DNA from: a virus
Length of the DNA: 64,000 nt
Strand: one strand, 5' to 3'
Virus record (IMG/VR): IMGVR_UViG_3300017917_003339
Span: 28,495-92,494 of that record
Shown here piece after piece: positions 12,304 through 56,755 of this stretch. The notes beneath the pieces were generated by a model. The model was not told the origin of the DNA. It worked only from the letters and a program-made list of their open reading frames with translations, and did no database searches. A program made the translations under genes and the position numbers. How positions within the stretch are numbered: position 1 is the first letter of the stretch; the number at the start of each line of letters is the position of its first letter.

Positions 12304-12304
12304 G

Positions 12305-12377: not shown

Positions 12378-12788
12378 TTATTTTTTTTCTTGTCTCTTTA
12401 CCCTACGTAATTCTCTACCATTACCTTTATTCAGCGCACCAAATGTTGGTGTTAGAGAATGACAATTAGGGCAAAGTAACTTTAAATTATCCAAAGAATT
12501 ATTATCAGAATTCCCATCAATATGTTCTAATTGTATTGGAACGTTATTGGTGATTGGGTTTCTTTCATTCCAACCACATTCCATACATTTTTCACCATAT
12601 TTGAAAATTAAATAATTTCGATAATTATTGATATAAAGAGTGGTATCACCTTTTTCAATATTTTCAAATATTAATTTTCTTTTATGTTCACCTTGGCAGT
12701 TATTATTACAGTATACATTCCTATTAGGGATTTTACCACCGCAATTTAAACATTCTTTTTCTAATTTTTCTCTTTCTCTCACGGACAA
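12378..12788 (-). CDS. HNH homing endonuclease (start approximate; ORF-track start 12863 lies inside a tRNA half)
   Basis: CxxC, LEHIDGNSDNNSLDNLKLLCPNCH. Confidence 0.88.
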   Translation of the reverse strand: MSVREREKLEKECLNCGGKIPNRNVYCNNNCQGEHKRKLIFENIEKGDTTLYINNYRNYLIFKYGEKCMECGWNERNPITNNVPIQLEHIDGNSDNNSLDNLKLLCPNCHSLTPTFGALNKGNGRELRRVKRQEKK

Positions 12789-12837
12789 CCTTATTTTATT
12801 ATAAATATCGGTCGTCCGTGAAAAAGTTAAAAAAAAT

Positions 12838-12867
12838 TTGGCGCTCAACCAGCCGAGCTCCATCCGC
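12838..12867 (-). pseudogene. 5' half of a disrupted tRNA (Gly-type acceptor)
   Basis: GCGGATG-GA-GCTC-GGCTGGTT-GAGC-G-CCA. Confidence 0.8.
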
Positions 12868-14351: not shown

Positions 14352-14645
14352 TTAAATACCAAAATTTTCTTCACCCATTTTTTTTATTAACACAGCTTCA
14401 GAAATAGCATGTTTAGCATCTTCTAAATCCTTGGCAAATGTAACAACCTCACCATCCCATAGGGTTATTTTAATATAACCATCTTCACCCTTTTCAATGA
14501 CAGTGTTTTTCATATCTTCAACCATCTTAGCCAATCGTCTATTTCTACTTTCCCAGTCTCTGAGAAATCTTTTCTTTCCTTCTTCGGTCATAAAACGACC
14601 AGTAAAACTTAACCCTTTCATAATACTTAAATTTAATTTGAGCAC
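14352..14645 (-). CDS. hypothetical protein
   Basis: ORF; likely start MKGLSF. Confidence 0.55.
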   Translation of the reverse strand: MLKLNLSIMKGLSFTGRFMTEEGKKRFLRDWESRNRRLAKMVEDMKNTVIEKGEDGYIKITLWDGEVVTFAKDLEDAKHAISEAVLIKKMGEENFGI

Positions 14646-14713
14646 TAGACGGGCCTCGAACCCATGACCTCTCCCATACCAAGGGAGTGTTCTGCCTACT
14701 GAACTACAAGTGC
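14641..14713 (-). tRNA. tRNA-Thr(GGU)
   Basis: CTCCC-TTGGTAT-GGGAG. Confidence 0.9.
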
Positions 14714-14719
14714 ATTTAG

Positions 14720-14793
14720 AGCCTCCGACAGGAATCGAACCTGCGACCTTCTCCTTACAAGGGAGTTGCTCTGGCCTGCTGAGCTACGGAGGC
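14720..14793 (-). tRNA. tRNA-Thr(UGU)
   Basis: CTCC-CTTGTAA-GGAG. Confidence 0.92.
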
Positions 14794-14857
14794 ATAACGG
14801 CCTATAACGTTTGCCATTCGGTGCATTTTGTTTCTCGCAGAACACTTACTGCTTGTG

Positions 14858-14940
14858 TGAGAGTAGTAGGATTCGAACCTACTCAGGCATAGCCAACGGT
14901 TTTACAGACCGCCCCAGCTCTCCAACTCTGGCGTACTCCC
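14858..14940 (-). tRNA. tRNA-Tyr(GUA)
   Basis: GCGGT-CTGTAAA-ACCGT, long V arm. Confidence 0.92.
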
Positions 14941-14949
14941 AATATTTAG

Positions 14950-15028
14950 TGGGCCTAGTAGGAATCGAACCTACAAGAATTAACACGATTTTACAGACCG
15001 CTGAGCTCACCACCTGCTCAATAGACCC
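14950..15028 (-). tRNA. tRNA-Tyr(GUA)
   Basis: GCGGT-CTGTAAA-ATCGT. Confidence 0.85.
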
Positions 15029-15097
15029 AAGTTCAGGGTGGTGTATCGGTTTCAAATTAAAAGTTTGATGATAATGATTGCTGAAACCACCCTTTAG

Positions 15098-15169
15098 TTG
15101 GAGGATAGGGACTCGAACCCTAAAAACGACAGTCAAAGTGTCGTATGTTGCCAATTACATCATCCTCCA
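15098..15169 (-). tRNA. tRNA-Gln(UUG)
   Basis: CGACA-CTTTGAC-TGTCG. Confidence 0.9.
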
Positions 15170-15178
15170 ATATGTTAG

Positions 15179-15260
15179 TTGGGAAAGAGGGACTCGAACC
15201 CCCATGTACTTCGCGTCTTCTGGCTCAAAACCAGAGGTGTTACCATTACACCATTTCCCA
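15179..15260 (-). tRNA. tRNA-Gln(UUG) with extended variable region
   Basis: TCTGG-TTTTGAG-CCAGA. Confidence 0.85.
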
Positions 15261-15316
15261 AAATTTCTAATTCTATGCTTGTCCTCACGCAACTCTATGA
15301 ATTAGTAACAGTCTCA
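15261..15316 (-). repeat. tRNA-spacer structured repeat, copy 1
   Basis: GAGACTGTTA-CTAATTC-ATAG...GCATA-GAATTAG-AAATTT. Confidence 0.8.
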
Positions 15317-15323
15317 TCAACTG

Positions 15324-15396
15324 AGCGGAAGACGGGACTCGAACCCGCAACCCCCGACTTGGAAGGACGGTGCTCTACCAATTGAGCTACTTCCGC
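15324..15396 (-). tRNA. tRNA-Gly(UCC)
   Basis: loop CTTCCAA, GCGGAAG/CTTCCGC. Confidence 0.92.
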
Positions 15397-15455
15397 AAAT
15401 TTTTAATTCTATGCAGACACTTACAAATGGGCCCCTATGAATTAATAACAGTCTC
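15397..15455 (-). repeat. tRNA-spacer structured repeat, copy 2
   Basis: GAGACTGTTA-TTAATTC-ATAG...GCATA-GAATTAA-AAATTT. Confidence 0.8.
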
Positions 15456-15461
15456 TTCTCG

Positions 15462-15537
15462 TCGGGATGACTGGACTCGAACCAGCATGATGTCCTGCTC
15501 CCAAAGCAGGCGACTTAACCAATTAGTCCACATCCCG
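15462..15537 (-). tRNA. tRNA-Pro(UGG)
   Basis: CCTGC-TTTGGGA-GCAGG. Confidence 0.9.
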
Positions 15538-16074
15538 TTTAAATTTTTCTACATATTCTAAAACCGTTTCTTCTATTAAATTTCTATACCTACTATGCCA
15601 ATAAGCATGATGTGTTGCACATAGAGGTATTAAATTCTCAGGTTTATTATTGTTTCTATCCCCATCTAAATGGTGAACATCTAACAATAATTTTTCATCA
15701 CAAACAACACATTTATGTTCGTGGTGTAAGAAACATGTTGACCTGTATGCATGTTCTTTCCAGTTTGGGTTTTTATCACCACTTCTAAAGAAAGAGTTTG
15801 CACAAGCATGAGAACATGTAATTTTTTCTCTTTTTGAACCTGATTGAGTTTCAAATTCATTCTCACAAACAGGACAAATTTTAATTATTCGTTCATATTT
15901 GAGAAAATGTTTTTTCTTTCTATTAGGTTCAAATTTTAAACCATTTATTTCAAATAACGCATCTAACTTTTTATACCCAGCACCATTATTGCTGATATTT
16001 AACCTTTTACAAGCTTCATTTTTAGAACTACATTCTAGTATAATTTTTTCTAATTCTTCTTTTTCGATATTCAT
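15523..16074 (-). CDS. HNH homing endonuclease
   Basis: DVHHLDGDRNNNKPENLIPLCATHH; stop codon lies inside the downstream tRNA-Pro. Confidence 0.88.
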   Translation of the reverse strand: MNIEKEELEKIILECSSKNEACKRLNISNNGAGYKKLDALFEINGLKFEPNRKKKHFLKYERIIKICPVCENEFETQSGSKREKITCSHACANSFFRSGDKNPNWKEHAYRSTCFLHHEHKCVVCDEKLLLDVHHLDGDRNNNKPENLIPLCATHHAYWHSRYRNLIEETVLEYVEKFKRDVD

Positions 16075-16137
16075 AACTTATTTTTATTATAAATATCATC
16101 AAATGTCGAAAAAATCACTTTTGGGAAATTTTATTTT

Positions 16138-16181
16138 CTGCATCCCAAATGCAGCGGATTAGCCAACTTTCCCACTACCCG
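16138..16181 (-). pseudogene. truncated tRNA-Pro(UGG), 5' part only
   Basis: CGGGTAG..D arm..CTGCA-TTTGGGA-TGCAG, followed by AT-rich HNH upstream region; no T arm. Confidence 0.8.
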
Positions 16182-16190
16182 TAATATTTG

Positions 16191-16264
16191 TACCCCCGAA
16201 GGGACTCGAACCCATGACCCCCCGCTTAAAAGGCGGGTGCTCTAACCAACTGAGCTACGAAGGC
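16191..16264 (-). tRNA. tRNA-Lys(UUU)
   Basis: CCCGC-CTTTTAA-GCGGG. Confidence 0.92.
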
Positions 16265-16269
16265 ATTTG

Positions 16270-16342
16270 TTCCCCCGACGGGCCTCGAACCCGCTACCCA
16301 CTGGTTAAAAGCCAGTTGCCCGTCCACATGAGCTTCGAAGGA
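16270..16342 (-). tRNA. tRNA-Lys(UUU)
   Basis: ACTGG-CTTTTAA-CCAGT. Confidence 0.88.
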
Positions 16343-16359
16343 ATTTATATTTCTATTTG

Positions 16360-16431
16360 TTCCCCCGCCCAGAGTCGAACTGGATTCCGTAGATTAAAAG
16401 TCTACTGCATCACCACCAATGCTTCGAGGGA
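16360..16431 (-). tRNA. tRNA-Lys(UUU)
   Basis: GTAGA-CTTTTAA-TCTAC. Confidence 0.85.
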
Positions 16432-16515
16432 ATATGTATCTTGCCCCTCAAAACATTGAGGGAATTACTGTTTACTCTTTATCTTCTTTATTGTTTTCAT
16501 TGTTTTTATTTTATT

Positions 16516-16592
16516 TGGCCTCCCAGAAGGATTCGAACCTTCCATCCATAAGCCCCCAATGGGCTGCGCTTTTCCTACTAAGCTATGGGACG
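16516..16592 (-). tRNA. degenerate tRNA, possibly Gln(UUG)-derived
   Basis: Good D and T arms; AGCC-CATTGGG-GGCT loop lacks U33. Confidence 0.5.
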
Positions 16593-16607
16593 CATATTTT
16601 ATTTTTG

Positions 16608-16702
16608 TCTGGTAAACAGGATTCGAACCTGTGGTAGACACTACCTTTGTGCCCACATCGGATTCCAAGTCCGACCGCTTAAACCATCTCGCGCATTACC
16701 AG
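16608..16702 (-). tRNA. tRNA-Pro(UGG) with long variable arm
   Basis: TCGGA-CTTGGAA-TCCGA; acceptor CTGGTAA/TTACCAG. Confidence 0.75.
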
Positions 16703-16716
16703 TTATTTTGTTGCAT

Positions 16717-16753
16717 AAAAAAACCCAGTTTAGATTTTACTCTGAACTGGGTC
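16717..16753 (-). terminator. attenuator terminator of tRNA operon 1
   Basis: GACCCAGTTCAGA-GTAAAA-TCTAAACTGGG-T7. Confidence 0.9.
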
Positions 16754-16777
16754 TATAATTTGTACTTGCGTACTTTA

Positions 16778-16879
16778 TTATATTGTTGTCAAGTCTGAAA
16801 ACATGACATACCCAGTCGACCTGAACGGTTTCCCGCCCTTAGGTTGATATTGCGTTTGATATGTTTTAGTTGTTTTCAT
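16778..16879 (-). CDS. leader peptide 1 (K/T/Y/Q/P/G sensor): MKTTKTYQTQYQPKGGKPFRSTGYVMFSDLTTI
   Basis: Manual translation; lies between promoter and terminator; contains antiterminator ACTGGGT at 16810-16816. Confidence 0.88.
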   Translation of the reverse strand: MKTTKTYQTQYQPKGGKPFRSTGYVMFSDLTTI

Positions 16880-16954
16880 AACTTTGTTTTTTGTTTTGTT
16901 TATAAATATGTTGTTTTTTAAAAAAATTCTGTTTTTGTTTATTAATTTTTACAA

Positions 16955-16990
16955 TGCAAAGATACTAACTATTATAATACAAGTCAAGTT
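16955..16990 (-). promoter_or_regulatory. promoter of tRNA operon 1
   Basis: ACTTGACT...GTATCTTTGCA (TAnnTTTG -7 box); same arrangement at all four leaders. Confidence 0.75.
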
Positions 16991-17021
16991 TTTTTGTAAA
17001 AAAATTTAAAATATTTTATAA

Positions 17022-18657: not shown

Positions 18658-19479
18658 TTATGAGTTTAACAAAATTTCTTTCATTTCAGTCACTAACTTT
18701 CTATGACCCTCACCGTACTGTGTCCAAGCCAACCCCATTTGTTTTAGGTCATAGTGTTTCAATACTGTACTGTAGTCTTCAACACCCTCTGGTCTACCGA
18801 TGATATAGATACTGTCAGCTAATTCAGCCGCAAGTCTAATATCGTGTGTTGAGAACATAATGGTGTTAGACTCATGTGCAGCACCAATTCTTTCAAAGGA
18901 TTGTTTAACCTTTTCAATGTTACCAACATCCAAACCAGAGAATGGTTCATCAAGAATCATAAAGTGTTTGTTGGTAAGCATTTGCTCAATAATCGCTGTG
19001 CGCTGTCTTTGACCACCCGACAATTCACAAGGGTATTTGTCTTTGTGTTCTAACAACCCCCATTCAGTTAAGTAATCCGTGATGATTGTGTCCTTTTCAG
19101 CTTTTGATAAGTTTGATTTACGCATAGCGTATTGACAAATCTGAGTCACGGTCTTGTGTCTGAAAAGCGTGTATTTTTGGTCCACAAAACCTACATCACC
19201 CTCATCAAGTTGTTTGGCATCATTCACATCGTCTGTGTTCATGTTGGCCAAAAGGATTTGGCCAGATATTGGTTTTAACAACCCAGTTAACACTTTAAAC
19301 AATGTTGATTTACCACGTCCAGAACGACCTAATACTGCAATCACTTGACCAGTTGAGTCGATGTCTTTTCTGATAACATTCTTTTCAATAATGCTAATGT
19401 CTTTGATGATAACCTTACCATCGTAGCCAGCGCTTACGTTATCAACGTATAATAGCGTTTCATTTGTTGTATATGGCAT
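18658..19479 (-). CDS. ABC transporter ATP-binding protein (NitT/TauT type)
   Basis: GRSGRGKST, LSGGQRQR, LDEPFSGLD, STHD. Confidence 0.93.
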   Translation of the reverse strand: MPYTTNETLLYVDNVSAGYDGKVIIKDISIIEKNVIRKDIDSTGQVIAVLGRSGRGKSTLFKVLTGLLKPISGQILLANMNTDDVNDAKQLDEGDVGFVDQKYTLFRHKTVTQICQYAMRKSNLSKAEKDTIITDYLTEWGLLEHKDKYPCELSGGQRQRTAIIEQMLTNKHFMILDEPFSGLDVGNIEKVKQSFERIGAAHESNTIMFSTHDIRLAAELADSIYIIGRPEGVEDYSTVLKHYDLKQMGLAWTQYGEGHRKLVTEMKEILLNS

Positions 19480-19490
19480 AATTCTTAGTT

Positions 19491-20324
19491 TTAGAAGTTA
19501 GAATATCTGAAAATTAACTTTCTTAATTTAGTCATTAAGAAGTCCAATAAAATCCCTACAAGGATAATAACAATCTGTACCGCAATAACTCTACCGTTAT
19601 CACCCACTTTGTCACCATTTTTGATAAGTACACCCAAACCACCAGCAGCGATAAGGATACTTTCAATACTTACAAGCATCATCCATACAATCGCAAGGTT
19701 TTGTCTTACCAATTCAAATACGTAGTCAAAACGACCTTTGATTACCACTTCCCAAAGCATTTCCCATCTGTTACAACCCAACGTTCTAGCATGGTCAAAT
19801 TCTTCTTGTGGAATGTCTTTAATCATCTGTACAAGGCTTGTAATCAAATAAGTCGACATGAACATTACAAGCACCCATACTTGGATAGTTCTTGCGCTAG
19901 AAAGGATAATAGTAATGTAGAACGTAATACCAGCCAGAGGTAAGAATCTAAGTTTTGAAATGAAATCAGCCCAACCCTTAAAGAATGGCAACGTACTCAA
20001 ATAGGTGAAAAACAAAGAGATAATCACCGATAGTACAACAGCTTGAGCACACAATGACAAAGAACTGAACAAATGTACAATAAGACCATCGTTCCAGATT
20101 GTACTAAAACCCTTCAACACCTGTGCTGGTGTTGGAAACAAATTTGTCGTCCCAGTAGACGATAAACCCCAAAAAGCAAACAATAGACCTAACCAAATGG
20201 TCAGCATCAATGTTTTACTAGAACCCTTTACTGACTGAAAGGGGATAAACATTTTCAATACGTTTTTCATTATTGTTATTTTTAAATTCTTTACAAAAAT
20301 ACGATTTAATTTCCATTCTACCAA
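19491..20324 (-). CDS. ABC transporter permease (NitT/TauT type)
   Basis: FPTPAQV, ARTLG, AAGGLG; multiple TM helices. Confidence 0.88.
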   Translation of the reverse strand: MVEWKLNRIFVKNLKITIMKNVLKMFIPFQSVKGSSKTLMLTIWLGLLFAFWGLSSTGTTNLFPTPAQVLKGFSTIWNDGLIVHLFSSLSLCAQAVVLSVIISLFFTYLSTLPFFKGWADFISKLRFLPLAGITFYITIILSSARTIQVWVLVMFMSTYLITSLVQMIKDIPQEEFDHARTLGCNRWEMLWEVVIKGRFDYVFELVRQNLAIVWMMLVSIESILIAAGGLGVLIKNGDKVGDNGRVIAVQIVIILVGILLDFLMTKLRKLIFRYSNF

Positions 20325-20384
20325 ATAATTAGGTAAAAAAAAAAATCCCTGATTTCTCAGGGACTTTTTAATTAAGCATAAGCA

Positions 20385-22199
20385 TTATTTCAAGAGAGTA
20401 ATTTCTACACGTCTGTTTTTAGCTTTACCTGACACGGTGTTGTTGTCACCGATAGGTTGAGTATCACCTCTACCGTCTACCAATTGGAAACGTTCTTTTG
20501 AGATACCACGGCTAGTTAAGTATTCAACTACTGAGTTAGCACGACCTCTAGACAATACTAAGTTTGAATCTGGGTTACCTACGTTGTCAGTGTGACCAAC
20601 AATTTTAAGTTTAGTTTCCTCAGCTTGAACTAACAAGTTGTAAATGGTTTCTAAGTCTTTTTCGGAACCTTGGATAGCAGTACTACCAGTTGCGAAGTTG
20701 ATATTCCATTGACCGTTAGCCAATACTTTAGTTTTTGTTTCAGCATATGAAATCTTTTCAACTTTACCAGCATCACCGATGTTGATTGATTTCAAGAAGT
20801 ACAAGTTAACTGCATCATCGTAAGGTACTACACCGTCAGGACACATACCGTTGAAATCCATAGGGTTCAAGTCGGTTAAGTAAGCAGAAACTTGGTCGTA
20901 CACAGCTTTATATCTGTTGTTACCGTCAGAGATACCGTTGTATTGCATCGCATCAGCGTAGTTGAATACTCTTGTACCACCGATATCGTAACCTAAACCA
21001 GCTTTGGTACCTTTTTGCCCTTTGAACATGTTGTACCAATATTCAGGTGTTTCAGCATTGTATGTTTTAGCGACACATTCAGCAGCTTTACGAGCCCACT
21101 CGTCATATTGTTTGATTTGGTTACAAGCCACGTAAGTTTGTTTCAATAAGTTGATAACTTCTTTATCGTGTTGTACAGCCCACTCTTTGATGATTACAAG
21201 TGTAGTAGCCATTTGATTTACGAACTCTTTAGTTGATACCACATCGGTGAAACCTGTTAGAGCATCGAAAGCCATTTTGTCACCTGGAGTCCACGTAGTG
21301 GCACCATCAATTTTACGGTTAACTGTTTTACCAGTCAATTTACCATCTTTAACCTCTTTCAAAGGCACAGTGTAACCTGCGGTTTGAGATTTAATTAAGT
21401 CTTTTACAGACTCAATGAAATCATCGTTTGGTGATGGAACGAAGTTAATCGCATTAGGGTCGTAAGTTTTAGGGTCTGGGTTTACTGGAATTTTGTTAGC
21501 GAACGCATAGTTACAAGCTACAACCCAGTCACCGTCACCGATTACAGAAGAGATAACACAACCTTTCATCGATTGAGGATTATCTTTCCAAATTTGTGGA
21601 CCAATCAACTTGTCCTCACCGTATGATAAACCATATTGTGCGATAGCTTGAACGTGGTATTTACCCTTACCGAATTTTTCGTCTAATGATTTCTGAGTAG
21701 TTGTGATATAGAACGGTACACCATCACCCATGATAGATACAGCTACAGCTGATTTATCAGATTTAGGATAAGCGGCACCACCGTCAAATTCCTCAACAAA
21801 CTTGATTTGCATATCACGTAAACCACCAACCATGTCTTGACGAACGATTTCTAAGTTTACACCTGCGGCTTCCATAAGTGACCCCTCAGTTGTACGAGGA
21901 CCACCGTTGGCTACAATCATACCAGAGTTACCATTCCATGCATACTCTGCAATTCTAATAAGACCTTTTGAAGCAACTTCACTTGATGGAGCGCTAGATG
22001 GCAAAGGCAATTTAGCACCAGCCGTTACGTTGTTCAAGTTTTCGGAATTAAGTTCCAAACCACCAAGGGTTTTTGAAACTTCCACTCGTAGACCTGGTGA
22101 AACGAAATACACCACAGCCATTACCAATACTGCTCCAAGAGCAACTAAAGCACCTTCTGCGAAGGTTGTCAATTTCTGAATTTTAAGGATTCTTCCCAT
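20385..22199 (-). CDS. ABC substrate-binding protein fused to C-terminal OmpA-like domain
   Basis: N-terminal TM helix; C-terminal GHTDNVG..NLVLSRGRA..NRRVEI. Confidence 0.88.
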   Translation of the reverse strand: MGRILKIQKLTTFAEGALVALGAVLVMAVVYFVSPGLRVEVSKTLGGLELNSENLNNVTAGAKLPLPSSAPSSEVASKGLIRIAEYAWNGNSGMIVANGGPRTTEGSLMEAAGVNLEIVRQDMVGGLRDMQIKFVEEFDGGAAYPKSDKSAVAVSIMGDGVPFYITTTQKSLDEKFGKGKYHVQAIAQYGLSYGEDKLIGPQIWKDNPQSMKGCVISSVIGDGDWVVACNYAFANKIPVNPDPKTYDPNAINFVPSPNDDFIESVKDLIKSQTAGYTVPLKEVKDGKLTGKTVNRKIDGATTWTPGDKMAFDALTGFTDVVSTKEFVNQMATTLVIIKEWAVQHDKEVINLLKQTYVACNQIKQYDEWARKAAECVAKTYNAETPEYWYNMFKGQKGTKAGLGYDIGGTRVFNYADAMQYNGISDGNNRYKAVYDQVSAYLTDLNPMDFNGMCPDGVVPYDDAVNLYFLKSINIGDAGKVEKISYAETKTKVLANGQWNINFATGSTAIQGSEKDLETIYNLLVQAEETKLKIVGHTDNVGNPDSNLVLSRGRANSVVEYLTSRGISKERFQLVDGRGDTQPIGDNNTVSGKAKNRRVEITLLK

Positions 22200-25536: not shown

Positions 25537-25613
25537 TGGGGGAAGCTGGACTCGAACCAGCGACCTTTCGCTCTCCTAAGACAGCGAACATCTGCCAACT
25601 GAAATATTCCCCC
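25537..25613 (-). ncRNA. tRNA-like RNA with 10-nt anticodon loop
   Basis: TTCGCT-GTCTTAGGAG-AGCGAA; good acceptor and T arm. Confidence 0.55.
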
Positions 25614-25842
25614 GATTGCCTCGGTTAAAAACCGAGGGCTTGTTCCGTGACGCTACCGCCCCAGAGATTTACGTCTTTGTGTTTGATACCACCGCCAGTA
25701 CAAAGTTTCATTATCACAAAGATAAGAGGAGGAACTTTCCTATTGGCTACTACTCTCAAACACCCTACGATGTCTAATTAAAATTACAATGCAAATATAC
25801 TAAGTGTTTTTCAATCTTGCAAGTTTTTTAAAAGTTTTTTTT

Positions 25843-26469
25843 TTAAGAGTTAGGGTAATTTATCAACTTTTCACTAAAATAGTAAAAACTTGTTTTACCC
25901 ATTCTTTTAAACCCTAAATTTTCCCAAAACTTTTTAACTCTTTTATGGCTTGCTTTGTTTTCTCTGTCGTCAATCGCAAAAGGTATAACAACAAACAAAC
26001 TATCAGGTTTACCTATAGTGTCTATTATTTCATGTATTACAGCAGAACCAATACCCATACCTCTATTTTTTTCATTTATTCTAAATAAATCAATATAGAT
26101 ATATTCACTAAACTCTTCCAAACTAAATTTAGTTTTGCTTCTGCTATCAGAATCTTTGAAACACGCATCGAAACCATCCACAAAGTTTTGTGATATAATA
26201 TCACAAAAATCATAAGCTTCTTCAAACCCCATCCAAGAAATGTGACGCATAAAATTTATTTTAACTTCACCAATTTCTTCAACGACATCTTTATTTGTCT
26301 CTTCGTCATATGAATAATTATCAACTATTTTAACGTTAATATCTTTTATATGACCCTCACATTCATAATGGATAGATGTTGAATAGTTTATTTCTATCAA
26401 GTTTTCTCTCAAAAGTTCAATAGAATCTGCCACATCTTCACCTAGCATTAACTCAAAGTATTGTTCCAT
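25843..26469 (-). CDS. GNAT acetyltransferase
   Basis: NRGMGIGS, KFWENLGF. Confidence 0.8.
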   Translation of the reverse strand: MEQYFELMLGEDVADSIELLRENLIEINYSTSIHYECEGHIKDINVKIVDNYSYDEETNKDVVEEIGEVKINFMRHISWMGFEEAYDFCDIISQNFVDGFDACFKDSDSRSKTKFSLEEFSEYIYIDLFRINEKNRGMGIGSAVIHEIIDTIGKPDSLFVVIPFAIDDRENKASHKRVKKFWENLGFKRMGKTSFYYFSEKLINYPNS

Positions 26470-29823: not shown

Positions 29824-30348
29824 CTAAACAGACATCCTTTTAACCATCTTTCTGTATATTCTATCTTCAAAATCTTTCATCAAAGAATCTGGGATTCTAA
29901 TTCCTTTAGATTCGAATTCACCTATAATCTCACGTTTAAGAAATGTACCCTCAACAATTCCATCACCCCATTGGTCACACCAAAGTCCCCAGCTTTTCTT
30001 ACCAACAATCACAGCCTTGACTATGTTTGGGTGTCTGGTTACTATGGGTTTTCCACCAGAGTATTGTCCGTTATCGAATTTTCTAAATGTGTTTTTACCT
30101 TCGGATTCATTGACATCAAATTCAACATTGACGATAGAACCGCAAAAGGTAAGAATACCTTTCCTATAAGAAGATAGAAAGAAATTGAAGATTTCATTGA
30201 AGTTGTCGGAATACTTTGATAACTTTCTATCAAGTCTGTTACCAGTTTCCTTTTTGCGTAATTCAATACGCTCTTGTTTTGTTAGGCTCCCAAGCGGTCG
30301 CCTCCTGATTGTGTTGTTTTCATATTCTTGTGTTTTTTGTTTAACCAA
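29824..30348 (-). CDS. hypothetical protein
   Basis: ORF. Confidence 0.6.
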   Translation of the reverse strand: MVKQKTQEYENNTIRRRPLGSLTKQERIELRKKETGNRLDRKLSKYSDNFNEIFNFFLSSYRKGILTFCGSIVNVEFDVNESEGKNTFRKFDNGQYSGGKPIVTRHPNIVKAVIVGKKSWGLWCDQWGDGIVEGTFLKREIIGEFESKGIRIPDSLMKDFEDRIYRKMVKRMSV

Positions 30349-31085
30349 TTTAATTTATTCAAGTCAATACTTGAATTAGATTTTACAATATGACCATCTG
30401 GAAAATGTTTTATCATATCAGACATACTCAATACTGGAAAATCTTTGTCAAAGTTTGCGTTTGGATGTGACCAACCAAATTTAAACAACCAATTCAACAA
30501 CGCATCAACATCATAGTCATTATAATCATCCGTAGTACAGTTACCAGTTCTTTTAGATAACTTACTACCCTTATAAAACAATAAACCAGCATGTTGAACA
30601 TTTGGAAATTGTTTTTGACCATATACGTTGCAAATCATATCCCACAACTTTTGTTGTTTTGGTAAATTTGTAATGTGGTCCACACCTCTGATTATGTCTG
30701 TAATGTCATAATCATAGTCATCTAATATCGAAGCAAAATTATAGGTTGGATAACCGTTATCTCTAAGGATAACCATATCGTAATCTCCCATGTTTACGTT
30801 TAACGTACCATCGTCTTTTTTAAACCCTATAGCTGTTGCCACTTGTTTGTATCGGTCAAGTCTGCTACTTTGCTTAAATGTTACATCATAATTTAACCCA
30901 AAGTAATTCATTTGTTGATATATGAAATCTACATCTGAATCATTGTTCCTAGACAAATCTGTGTCATCGATTCTAAGGATAAAATTACCATCATTTGATT
31001 TACTCAATAAATAATTGAATAAAGCAGTACGTAATGTCCCTAAATGAAATTTGCCCGTTGGTGAAGGGGCAATTCTTGTTTTCAT
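30282..31085 (-). CDS. glutamyl-tRNA synthetase-like catalytic-domain protein (GluRS/GluQ-like)
   Basis: TRIAPSPTG.FHLG, LRIDDTD, IIRGVDH, KLSKR; no anticodon-binding domain. Confidence 0.85.
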   Translation of the reverse strand: MKTRIAPSPTGKFHLGTLRTALFNYLLSKSNDGNFILRIDDTDLSRNNDSDVDFIYQQMNYFGLNYDVTFKQSSRLDRYKQVATAIGFKKDDGTLNVNMGDYDMVILRDNGYPTYNFASILDDYDYDITDIIRGVDHITNLPKQQKLWDMICNVYGQKQFPNVQHAGLLFYKGSKLSKRTGNCTTDDYNDYDVDALLNWLFKFGWSHPNANFDKDFPVLSMSDMIKHFPDGHIVKSNSSIDLNKLNWLNKKHKNMKTTQSGGDRLGA

Positions 31086-31106
31086 AATACTATTTTTTAT
31101 ATTTTG

Positions 31107-31179
31107 TGGAGCTGACGGGAGTTGAACCCGCATCCTCTACCTTGCAAAGGTAGCGCTCAGCCAGTTGAGCTACAGCCCC
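31107..31179 (-). tRNA. tRNA-Ala(UGC)
   Basis: CTACC-TTTGCAA-GGTAG; G3:U70. Confidence 0.92.
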
Positions 31180-32030: not shown

Positions 32031-32669
32031 TTATTTTCTCCCTTTTAACCAACCTTCGTTTAAATAAGTTTCAAGGTCTTCTTTTTTAATTTTTTTGTTA
32101 GTACCATCCTTGGTTATCCAACATGTACCATATTGACTGTTTGTTTCACCAGTCCCAGTACCTTTTCTTTTTTCTGATATTAATTGTTTAGTTTCTTCCG
32201 AATGACATTTACCTTCAAAAGTATTATAATTAATTTTACCTAATTTATGTGCTTTTTTTAATGTTTCAGATGATATTTCTGTATGTTTTTTAAAAAACTC
32301 TTCATCAATTTTTAATTTGTCAGAAAACGCTTTTCCACCAGCCTTAATACATTTCTCCATATGTTCTTTATTAGCAAAACCACCTTGACCACCTTCTTTT
32401 AAATTCATACATAAACCATCAGATATCAACTCTTTTGTTATAATTTCAATCTCTCTAAGAACTAATTTTTCTCTTGTTGGTAAAAATTCTAATATTTCTT
32501 TTGTATGGTTTTCAACACCATATTTCCTAATACTATATCTTAATATCTTACCACTTCCCATGTAACCGTCATCTAATTTCGTAGTTGAATGCATTCCAAT
32601 ATACCATCTTCCTGTTACATTACATGTTGTTTTATATATGTAATGTATATTTGCTTTTTTTCTTGCCAT
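32031..32669 (-). CDS. GIY-YIG (Seg-like) homing endonuclease with NUMOD3
   Basis: YIYKTT..WYIGMH..YMGSG; HSEETKQLISE. Confidence 0.9.
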   Translation of the reverse strand: MARKKANIHYIYKTTCNVTGRWYIGMHSTTKLDDGYMGSGKILRYSIRKYGVENHTKEILEFLPTREKLVLREIEIITKELISDGLCMNLKEGGQGGFANKEHMEKCIKAGGKAFSDKLKIDEEFFKKHTEISSETLKKAHKLGKINYNTFEGKCHSEETKQLISEKRKGTGTGETNSQYGTCWITKDGTNKKIKKEDLETYLNEGWLKGRK

Positions 32670-32726: not shown

Positions 32727-32805
32727 TGGTAGCCTCGACGGGGCTCGAACCCGCATTGCACACCTTGAAAGGATGGCTTCCTAGTCCGATTTAGAAGACA
32801 AGGCC
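32727..32805 (-). tRNA. tRNA-Glu(UUC)
   Basis: CATC-CTTTCAA-GGTG, encoded CCA. Confidence 0.85.
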
Positions 32806-33104: not shown

Positions 33105-33165
33105 TAATTTCGTTGCAAAGATACAACTTATTTTTTAATCTCCAAATTTTCAATGAACTTTTTTT
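33105..33165 (-). promoter_or_regulatory. internal promoter cassette, near-identical to 55065-55125
   Basis: GTTGTATCTTTGCAACG within a ~60-nt repeat. Confidence 0.7.
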
Positions 33166-33323: not shown

Positions 33324-33413
33324 TTAACTATTGGCAACACACGACCCTCCAGAAGAGCAATCCTCCTCGGCAGCAAAAAATGCAAAATCAAATATGTTAG
33401 CAAAAGTTCTCAT
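33324..33413 (-). CDS. leader peptide 2 (F/A/D/E sensor): MRTFANIFDFAFFAAEEDCSSGGSCVANS
   Basis: Manual translation; antiterminator AGGGTCG at 33342-33348. Confidence 0.88.
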   Translation of the reverse strand: MRTFANIFDFAFFAAEEDCSSGGSCVANS

Positions 33414-35518: not shown

Positions 35519-35602
35519 TTAGTTAACACACAAGTAGCCCAGCTGTGTTTCCACTAGCAAGCATAAACCTAAAAGGACTAATATGTTAAAAGTATTTCTC
35601 AT
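35519..35602 (-). CDS. leader peptide 3 (L/V/C sensor): MRNTFNILVLLGLCLLVETQLGYLCVN
   Basis: Manual translation; antiterminator TGGGCT at 35536-35541. Confidence 0.88.
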   Translation of the reverse strand: MRNTFNILVLLGLCLLVETQLGYLCVN

Positions 35603-55064: not shown

Positions 55065-55125
55065 TAATTCGTTGCAAAGATACAACTTATTTTTTAATTT
55101 CCAAATTTTTCAACGAACTTTTTTT
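55065..55125 (-). promoter_or_regulatory. internal promoter cassette, near-identical to 33105-33165
   Basis: GTTGTATCTTTGCAACG. Confidence 0.7.
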
Positions 55126-55479: not shown

Positions 55480-56127
55480 TTATTTTCTCCCTTTTAACCA
55501 ACCATCATTTAGATAAGTTTCAAGGTCTTCTTTTTTAATCTTTTTATTAGCACCATCCTTGGTTATCCAACAAGTACCATATTGACTATTTGATTCACCA
55601 ACACCAGTACCTTTTCTTATTTCAGATATCAACTGTTTAGTTTCTTCAGAATGTTTTTTCCCATTCCAATCATAATTAACATTCCTATCAATTTTACCTT
55701 CTTCATATGCTTTTTTAATCGATTTAGACAACGTATCACTTTTTTTCTTATTCCACTCTGGGTCTTGTCTTAAAAGTTTTTGTTTTTCATTTGATTTAAT
55801 AGCATTTAATTTTTGTTCTTCACTAGTAAACCCACGACCACCTTCACCGCCAACAATTAAATTCATACATAAGTACTCTTTAATTAATTCTTTATTAACT
55901 ATCTCACGTTCTCGCTTAGCTAATTTTTCTCTAGTTGGTAAATATTCAAGGATTTCTTTTGTGTGGTTTTCTACGCCATACTTTCTAATTGAATATCTCA
56001 ACCTTTTACCACTTCCCATATAACCATCTTCTAGGTTACACGTACTATGCATCCCTACATAATATTTTCCAGTTACATTACATGTTGTTTTATATATGTA
56101 ATGTATTGTTTTTTCTTTTCTTGCCAT
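55480..56127 (-). CDS. GIY-YIG (Seg-like) homing endonuclease, paralog of 32031-32669
   Basis: MARKEKTIHYIYKTTCNVTGKYYVGMH; near-identical C-terminus. Confidence 0.9.
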   Translation of the reverse strand: MARKEKTIHYIYKTTCNVTGKYYVGMHSTCNLEDGYMGSGKRLRYSIRKYGVENHTKEILEYLPTREKLAKREREIVNKELIKEYLCMNLIVGGEGGRGFTSEEQKLNAIKSNEKQKLLRQDPEWNKKKSDTLSKSIKKAYEEGKIDRNVNYDWNGKKHSEETKQLISEIRKGTGVGESNSQYGTCWITKDGANKKIKKEDLETYLNDGWLKGRK

Positions 56128-56180
56128 TGTCGTATATCTTTTTAATATAAATATACGACAAAGTACAAAAAAGTCAAGTG

Positions 56181-56255
56181 GGTGACTGATGGGGTTCGAA
56201 CCCACGGCCTTCTGAACCACAATCAGACGCTCTAACCAGCTGAGCTACAGCCACC
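56181..56255 (-). tRNA. tRNA-His(GUG)
   Basis: TCTGA-TTGTGGT-TCAGA. Confidence 0.93.
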
Positions 56256-56324: not shown

Positions 56325-56415
56325 CGGAGGAGGTGAGACTCGAACTCACACGTCCCTTTCGGGTACCCTCGGTTTTCAAGACCGCTGCCGCTAGGCCAAC
56401 TCGGCTTACTCCTCC
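56325..56415 (-). tRNA. tRNA-Ser(UGA)
   Basis: CGGT-CTTGAAA-ACCG, G73. Confidence 0.93.
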
Positions 56416-56596
56416 GTATTTATAATAACAAAAATTTCAATGAACCCACCTTCTTTTTTAAATTTCAGTTCGCCAGTATATCCACTAGCATCTGCCATTT
56501 TTCTGTACTTGTCAACTATGAGGTCAAAATTCTCTGTTAAGTCGACAGCTTTTTCTCTACCTAAACATTTTACTAATTCACCCATAGTCTTAAAAT

Positions 56597-56653: not shown

Positions 56654-56755
56654 TTAGGTCCAAGTCCCTCCACCTTTACAATTAGACATACCCGACTCTG
56701 GGTGACTATTGCGTCTCCAATTTCTCGAAATCATATGTATGTTAATTGTTCTCAT
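56654..56755 (-). CDS. leader peptide 4 (R/I/N/H/M/S/W sensor): MRTINIHMISRNWRRNSHPESGMSNCKGGGTWT
   Basis: C-terminal part of track ORF 56654-56836; antiterminator GTCGGGT at 56690-56696. Confidence 0.88.
   Translation of the reverse strand: MRTINIHMISRNWRRNSHPESGMSNCKGGGTWT

Follow-up and report, generated by a model that had tools for sequence, protein, structure and literature searches.

The window analysed here spans the right-hand 64 kb of one virus contig of 92,494 bp, and all of its genes, attenuator 1 included, lie on the minus strand. Relatives of the contig include the 462-kb uncultured phage LR756500.1, in which a 604-aa protein of this contig has a homologue with 70% identity, as well as IMG/VR contigs of 205-362 kb. 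The completeness that CheckV assigns to related fragments likewise suggests a genome of several hundred kb. Taking both lines together, the contig is probably a fragment of a very large phage. The unit of interest places a promoter, a short leader ORF and a hairpin followed by a U-tract in front of an array of tRNA genes, with the following parts in the order of transcription:

16957..16987 (minus strand): promoter, with TTGACT (-33-like) and TATCTTTG (-7 box of the Bacteroidota TAnnTTTG type)
16898..16911 (minus strand): conserved 14-nt motif of the 5' UTR that includes ATATTTATA; role unknown
16778..16879 (minus strand): leader ORF of 33 codons plus stop; frame open in 8 related sequences, diverged ones included
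16826..16876 (minus strand): sensor codons 2-18, K/T/Y/Q/P/G only (17/17 in set)
16851..16869 (minus strand): segment 1, the putative anti-antiterminator (ORF nt 11-29), predicted to pair with segment 2 in untranslated RNA
16823..16838 (minus strand): GC-rich hairpin formed by the rare codons GGC, GGG and CCG; pairs invariant in 6 homologues
16810..16817 (minus strand): segment 2, the 5' strand of the antiterminator with ACTGGGT, codons 21-24; from folds of truncated transcripts
16754..16808 (minus strand): two hairpins within the antiterminator domain (16808-16787 and 16782-16754), the second holding the stop codon
16717..16753 (minus strand): intrinsic terminator, a 9+3 bp hairpin (-15.3 kcal/mol) followed by 7 U
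14640..16702 (minus strand): array of 13 tRNA genes (ARAGORN and Rfam)
16074-15523 (minus strand): HNH homing-endonuclease ORF (Pfam), after the third Lys tRNA of the array

The -7 box TAnnTTTG with an upstream TTG presumably represents the promoter type of Bacteroides and Flavobacterium. About 55 nt around the promoter are nearly identical across all four leader units of the window, and the extended -7 motif is over-represented there (36 copies vs 8.6 expected), mostly on the minus strand and preceding ORFs. No other TAnnTTTG was found on the minus strand between 16964 and 14442. Therefore, array 1 lacks an internal promoter-like box and its 13 tRNA genes appear to be reachable only through the terminator. 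The 5' UTR is an A-rich stretch of about 70 nt that carries the conserved 14-mer. Within it, the motif ATATTTATA had been described in the initial annotation as late-type; the motif is indeed present upstream, at 16909-16901 (minus strand), but the label fails, because the T4 late consensus is found only on the opposite strand and the extended 14-mer occurs exactly twice in the 92-kb genome, in the UTRs of leaders 1 and 2. A role as T4-type late or general promoter was rejected on these grounds. The 14-mer is kept in the relatives L001 and L002, and its core in L014.

The leader ORF starts 78 nt downstream of the -7 box, and its codons 2-18 (ORF 16879..16778, minus strand) are exactly those first listed for it. 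The six amino acids of this sensor make up 31% of the residues in the long ORFs of the phage, so that 17 hits in 17 codons have a binomial probability of 2.4e-9. A genome-wide control was also carried out, in which 1,549 ATG-started open windows of 18 codons, from both strands of the 92-kb genome, were compared with four isotype sets. Leader 1 ranks first among the 1,549 windows for set purity, and leaders 1, 4 and 2 take ranks 1, 2 and 4 among the 6,196 genome-wide tests. The base composition of the region does not dictate this choice of codons, given that Asn, Ile and Arg, equally A-rich, are absent from the sensor of leader 1 although they dominate leader 4, while Tyr, Pro and Gly are present. 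For each anticodon of the operon, Gly-GCC at 12304 further downstream included, leader 1 contains a codon that it can read. It had also been proposed that the GC-rich synonymous codons of the leader sample several isoacceptors. The rarity of ACG, GGC, GGG and CCG holds (0.06-0.11 of their families), but AAG, at 0.23, is merely the minor Lys codon. The joint use of GC-rich codons is mildly unusual in leader 1 (P 0.026) and reaches only 0.17-0.49 in the other three leaders. Isoacceptor sampling is not supported as proposed, since the signal is significant in leader 1 only and cannot be separated there from a conserved hairpin built of the same codons. The invariance of the GGC, GGG, CCG hairpin in 6 homologues makes structure at least as good an explanation for the rare codons.

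The order of the genes in array 1 is Pro, Gln, Lys (three), Pro, Gly, Gln (two), Tyr (two) and Thr (two). Its isotypes are exactly Pro, Gln, Lys, Gly, Tyr and Thr, which is the amino-acid set of the sensor. The first tRNA (16702) begins 14 nt past the U-tract of the terminator. When array 1 was compared by blastn with cultured and deposited phages, matches were obtained at the tRNA genes only. The two tRNAs that open the array are atypical, a point counted against reading the unit as an attenuator. One of them, at 16607-16702 (minus strand), measures 96 nt, has anticodon UGG (Pro) and carries an extra arm of 8 bp, which is very long; the relative L002 also has a long form. The other, at 16517-16592 (minus strand), is a low-scoring Gln-UUG tRNA in which position 33 is A in place of U and the acceptor stem has a G.G mismatch.

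The RNA between the leader and the terminator of unit 1 is strongly folded (-45.2 kcal/mol, z = -5.5). In the fold predicted for the untranslated RNA, the terminator is present and nt 11-29, within the early codons, form a helix with nt 66-85. This helix between segments 1 and 2 (1:2) appears in the MFE and centroid folds of all units, with overlap limited to the early codons 4-10 and thin covariation; across 6 homologues, 83% of its cells are paired and there is one two-sided change. The pairing of ACTGGGT with ACCCAGT proposed in the initial annotation was borne out, in that the former (16816-16810) can pair with the latter (16752-16746), which is the 5' arm of a hairpin with the U-tract of a terminator. 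The duplex between segment 2 and this arm (2:3) is worth -12.8 kcal/mol, above 99.7% of shuffles (p 0.003), and the corresponding duplexes of the other three units gave p values of 0.049, 0.010 and 0.001. When the transcript is cut before the 3' arm of the terminator, nt 63-70 (ACUGGGU) are predicted to pair with the 5' arm, ACCCAGUU, and this pairing persists with or without a ribosome mask on the sensor. In fact, the antiterminator, at nt ~60-71, is the MFE fold of the transcript without the 3' arm in all four units. When the full transcript is folded at equilibrium, on the other hand, the terminator state has an advantage of 3-6 kcal/mol over the antiterminator state, and the terminator persists under every simulated ribosome mask. 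The check by constrained folding that had been suggested at the outset is thus split: the terminator is kept under all masks, which speaks against the switch, and the antiterminator is the MFE fold before the 3' arm exists, which speaks for it. Equilibrium masking being uninformative or negative, folds of truncated transcripts were used instead, and the preference for the antiterminator in them is the behaviour expected of kinetic attenuators. Since the terminator is favoured at equilibrium, the switch must be kinetic, with the antiterminator forming first; this is the usual assumption for attenuators, yet it remains a real uncertainty here. A further peculiarity is that the ORF passes through segment 2 and reaches its stop codon about 30 nt beyond it, so a terminating ribosome would not sit on segment 2, unlike in the textbook trp case. 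A ribosome stalled at codons 17-18 would start covering this segment.

The window contains three further units with a nearly identical promoter and an equal layout, whose leaders (minus strand) match their own arrays as follows:

ATG at 33413: sensor with 13/17 codons in F/A/D/E
ATG at 35602: sensor with 9/17 codons in C/V/L
ATG at 56755: sensor with 16/17 codons in S/H/W/I/M/N/R

In the complete matrix of four leaders by four arrays, the diagonal holds 17, 13, 9 and 16 of 17 codons vs 0-4 off the diagonal. The four isotype sets do not overlap and jointly comprise all 20 amino acids. Promoter-like -7 boxes also occur within arrays 2 and 4, at 33114-33124 and 55073-55083 (minus strand), and none within array 1; because of these boxes, parts of arrays 2 and 4 may escape attenuator control. 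In attenuator 4, the terminator is separated from the first tRNA by an ORF of about 57 codons (56410-56586, minus strand) that is conserved in L023, so that attenuator 4 would control a small protein too.

Relatives of the unit were sought in several ways. The neighbouring 182-aa protein, used as query, led to two IMG/VR contigs with the attenuator 1 unit, and a search with the promoter pattern returned 38 IMG/VR loci and more than 120 metagenome loci. All four leader types recur in relatives, each preceding the matching array, whereas blastn of the leader-1 and leader-4 units against cultured and deposited phages gave no matches. Among close homologues of leader 1, codons 2-5 vary only by K/T/Q exchanges, with one G-to-S exception; the counts of substitutions within the set are too small in close relatives to be given weight. 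More diverged copies are informative. In L055 and L061, the sensor is reordered and still consists of K/T/Y/Q/P/G only, over 22 and 16 consecutive codons, respectively. Another example is found in the leader-4 family, where an in-frame indel of 3 nt turns R into I-S, both of which belong to the set of unit 4. The changes in the C-terminal half of the leader are mostly non-synonymous, hence the peptide itself is not conserved. Such comparisons were counted as support for the inference that selection may act on the composition of the sensor and not on its sequence.

The helices of the switch were examined in the same relatives. Covariation among close relatives alone is not significant, there being too few changes. 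In L061, two columns of the 5' arm have changed, and both changes are compensated in the antiterminator partner as well as in the terminator partner. Over 9 sequences, 98.6% of the cells of the antiterminator helix are paired, with 2 two-sided changes, and 98.1% of those of the terminator helix, with 3 two-sided changes, a result equalled by 1 of 500 shuffles. A second lineage is provided by L016, of the leader-4 family, in which C is replaced by U in the 5' arm and both partners carry the matching replacement of G by A. That a single column should covary with two alternative partners is what specifically marks a terminator/antiterminator switch, and here this rests on the alignments of two lineages only. 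In addition, L001 shows a CG to GC compensation in the small GTAC/GTAC stem of the hairpins in the antiterminator domain.

Arrays of different content offer another comparison. In the 86-kb contig L014, Cys, Val and Leu genes are interleaved with Asp, Phe and Ala genes and there is no Glu gene; correspondingly, L, A, D, C, V and F account for 17 of 20 codons of its leader (positions 5-24, by manual count), and E is absent. LR756500.1 has a leader at about 118985-118854 (minus strand) in which H, E, V, W and L are abundant, and the genes behind it are those of His, Glu, Val, Trp and Leu tRNAs. This leader shares the predicted topology of helices 1:2, 2:3 and 3:4 (the last being the terminator) with the units of the window, with a weak antiterminator, and it also has six Ile codons and no Ile gene nearby. 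The duplexes between segment 2 and the 5' arm gave p values of 0.017 for L014 and 0.075 for LR756500.1. Leader composition thus appears, from these two cases, to follow array content in a correspondingly different manner. No tRNAs were found in the 40 kb around the homologue of the 604-aa protein in LR756500.1, the arrays being elsewhere in that genome. Two other candidates were set aside. The first, found downstream of the same promoter in six IMG/VR contigs, is an ORF of 21 codons that had been considered as a fifth attenuator and was taken to be an ordinary gene start; no tRNAs were found within 6 kb downstream in the six contigs, and the copy in L008 is followed by a long ORF with no terminator seen. 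The second, L044, a further leader candidate of LR756500.1 (reverse strand, position 897), is a loose match located 850 nt from the first tRNA.

Taken together, these observations favour the identification of the unit as a ribosome-mediated (leader-peptide) transcription attenuator of a phage tRNA operon, with a probability of roughly 0.8 in the absence of expression, ribosome-profiling or termination data. The properties by which membership of this class was tested are a promoter-near short ORF kept open in relatives, enrichment of its codons for the relevant amino acids, an intrinsic terminator between leader and regulated genes, and an antiterminator mutually exclusive with that terminator; each was met, the first with in-frame changes included and the last though the antiterminator is the weaker structure. 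The attenuator proposed in the initial annotation is in this way supported by the promoter, a conserved ORF with regulatory codons, the predicted switch topology and tRNA genes directly behind the terminator. What has been established is the anatomy, the match between codons and tRNAs, the conservation of that match and the covariation of the switch helices. The translation of the leader, its coupling to transcription and the direction of the response are inferred, and the function, as well as the size of the response, remains unproven.

The proposed mechanism would operate as follows. Transcription would start at the host-type promoter and a ribosome would translate the 33-codon leader. When Lys, Thr, Tyr, Gln, Pro and Gly aminoacyl-tRNAs are plentiful, the ribosome would run across segment 2; in the absence of a ribosome, segment 1 would sequester it. 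In either situation, the terminator hairpin would form and transcription would stop 14 nt ahead of the first tRNA gene. Under scarcity of any of the six, the ribosome would stall within codons 2 to about 16 and cover segment 1, segment 2 would then be able to pair with the emerging 5' arm of the terminator, and the polymerase would read into the 13 tRNA genes. The predicted outcome is a negative-feedback loop on the tRNA supply of six isotypes, and the three paralogous units may act likewise for the remaining 14 amino acids.

The equilibrium folds leave room for a simpler arrangement, in which the terminator is a fixed, leaky brake, the ORF has no regulatory consequence and the array is transcribed at a constant fraction of promoter activity. 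Thermodynamics does favour the terminator whichever ribosome mask is applied, and there are no expression data. Such a brake would nevertheless leave unexplained why each of the four leaders draws on the amino acids of its own array, why diverged copies reorder the codons and yet keep the set, and why the 5' arm of the terminator covaries with a second partner inside the ORF, and for these reasons it seems unlikely. A second possibility retains the codon-matched sensor and moves its output away from intrinsic termination, to RNA processing or stability or to a termination factor, with no role for helix 2:3. The codon match by itself does not specify the output, the stop codon lies far from segment 2, and A-rich unstructured stretches are present; against this stand the conserved hairpin with its U7 and the three-way covariation of the 5' arm with segment 2 and the 3' arm, and the proposal is considered quite improbable. 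The direction of regulation being inferred and unmeasured, the logic might also be inverted, so that efficient translation of the leader gives read-through and stalling gives termination, the tRNAs being made while translation works well. A ribosome crossing segment 1 would indeed free segment 2 transiently as well. However, segment 1 overlaps the early sensor codons, so it is the stalled ribosome that would free segment 2 for longest, whereas one that moved on would cover segment 2 and, after it, the hairpins inside the antiterminator domain; nor is there an obvious benefit in positive feedback on tRNAs whose supply is sufficient already, and little credence is given to this inversion. Finally, a functional small peptide as the product of the ORF, or an ORF arisen by chance in an A-rich leader, can hardly be maintained as an explanation. 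A-rich sequence does favour K, T, Q and N codons and the ORF is short, but the equally A-rich N, I and R are missing from the sensor, Y, P and G are there, the peptide is not conserved beyond the rule of the set and the ORF comes first in the genome-wide control.

As a probable ribosome-mediated attenuator, the phage unit can be compared with several known systems. Leader-peptide attenuators that respond to more than one amino acid include the thr leader (Thr and Ile) and the ilvGMEDA leader (Ile, Leu and Val), and the class also comprises trpL, hisL, leuL and pheL. The phage unit shares with these amino-acid operons the promoter-proximal short ORF, the regulatory codons, the predicted mutually exclusive helices 2:3 and 3:4 (with 1:2 only thinly supported by covariation), the intrinsic terminator before the regulated genes and the use of more than one amino acid per leader. 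Unlike them, it is a phage element and would regulate tRNA genes instead of biosynthetic enzymes, so that the output would restore the sensed molecule; its sensor serves six amino acids (seven in unit 4), four units partition all 20, the ORF crosses segment 2 and stops about 30 nt beyond, and there is no Rfam leader match. Another relevant example is the attenuator of pheST (pheM leader), which controls the phenylalanyl-tRNA synthetase of E. coli. In that operon, leader-peptide attenuation likewise acts on a component of the translation apparatus and not on a biosynthetic pathway, although the system is bacterial, controls a synthetase rather than tRNA genes and senses a single amino acid. T-box riboswitches likewise couple the sensing of tRNA and aminoacylation to a terminator/antiterminator switch before translation-related genes; unlike the phage unit, they bind uncharged tRNA directly and need neither ribosome nor ORF. 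A scan of the window at the gathering thresholds of Rfam, which includes the T-box (RF00230), returned tRNA matches only, and a permissive Rfam scan of 16690-17010 found no T-box and no leader family. With regard to tRNA genes under control, the trn operon of Anabaena sp. PCC 7120 is a stress-induced long tRNA array that stays silent until translation elongation is impaired (PMC8421152). It resembles the phage arrays in being an inducible accessory tRNA array and differs in that it is controlled at the promoter by a protein repressor, TrcR (PMC10272220); an attenuator, leader or terminator is not mentioned for it in these two papers (PMC8421152, PMC10272220). A full-text literature search found no report of leader-peptide control of tRNA genes, nor any published account of their attenuation in the style of the trp operon.

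Phage tRNA genes have been known for more than 50 years and their purpose is still debated. Codon compensation, replacement of tRNAs after host shut-off and evasion of defences that cleave tRNAs are among the functions proposed (PMC10264068). The coincidence of sensor codons and released isotypes would imply a demand-regulated tRNA supply in these phages, and the attenuator offers a direct experimental handle on the matter, namely the stresses that open each switch. It is conceivable, though no more than a tentative suggestion, that the four attenuators constitute a phage-borne monitor of decoding capacity for the 20 amino acids that serves mainly for inducible counter-defence. In such a scheme, a tRNA-cleaving host defence or host shut-off would deplete certain tRNAs, only the matching block of replacement tRNAs would be switched on, and it would be switched off again after decoding recovers. 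Independently of this suggestion, the attenuator reading would extend classical attenuation in that the molecule sensed is itself what the output restores and in that a single leader handles up to seven amino acids, and would offer compact, programmable 'codon-speed' sensors for Bacteroidota. The same architecture is present in many uncultured phage contigs and in the published LR756500.1, and it is therefore not a one-off.

Several minor observations concern the arrays and their surroundings. HNH and GIY-YIG/NUMOD3 homing-endonuclease genes are interspersed among the tRNAs of several arrays (15523-16074, 12378-12863, 32031-32669 and 55480-56220, all on the minus strand). Such nucleases have been reported to shuffle phage tRNA loci, and the interspersed genes agree with this. 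In array 2, ARAGORN calls a tRNA-SeC with anticodon UCA at 32727-32805 (minus strand; 37 bits in Rfam), which may be either a suppressor that reads UGA or a tRNA called wrongly. The Phe/Glu/Asp/Ala array ends with a gene (30282-31133, minus strand) for a 283-aa protein that contains only the catalytic domain of a class I Glu/Gln tRNA synthetase (Pfam, E 1.7e-46). By its size and its adjacency to the tRNA-Asp genes, it is reminiscent of GluQ-RS (YadB), a modifier of tRNA-Asp, a matter of likeness only. At 25613-25850 (minus strand), a promoter of the same type, with no leader ORF, precedes some 180 nt of RNA that is richer in GC, seems to be structured and runs into an odd tRNA-like gene with a 2-nt anticodon according to ARAGORN. 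Finally, the 604-aa protein, whose C-terminal ~100-140 residues match OmpA-family outer-membrane proteins (BLAST), is adjoined by a phage-borne ABC transporter ATPase and permease (18658-22199, minus strand).
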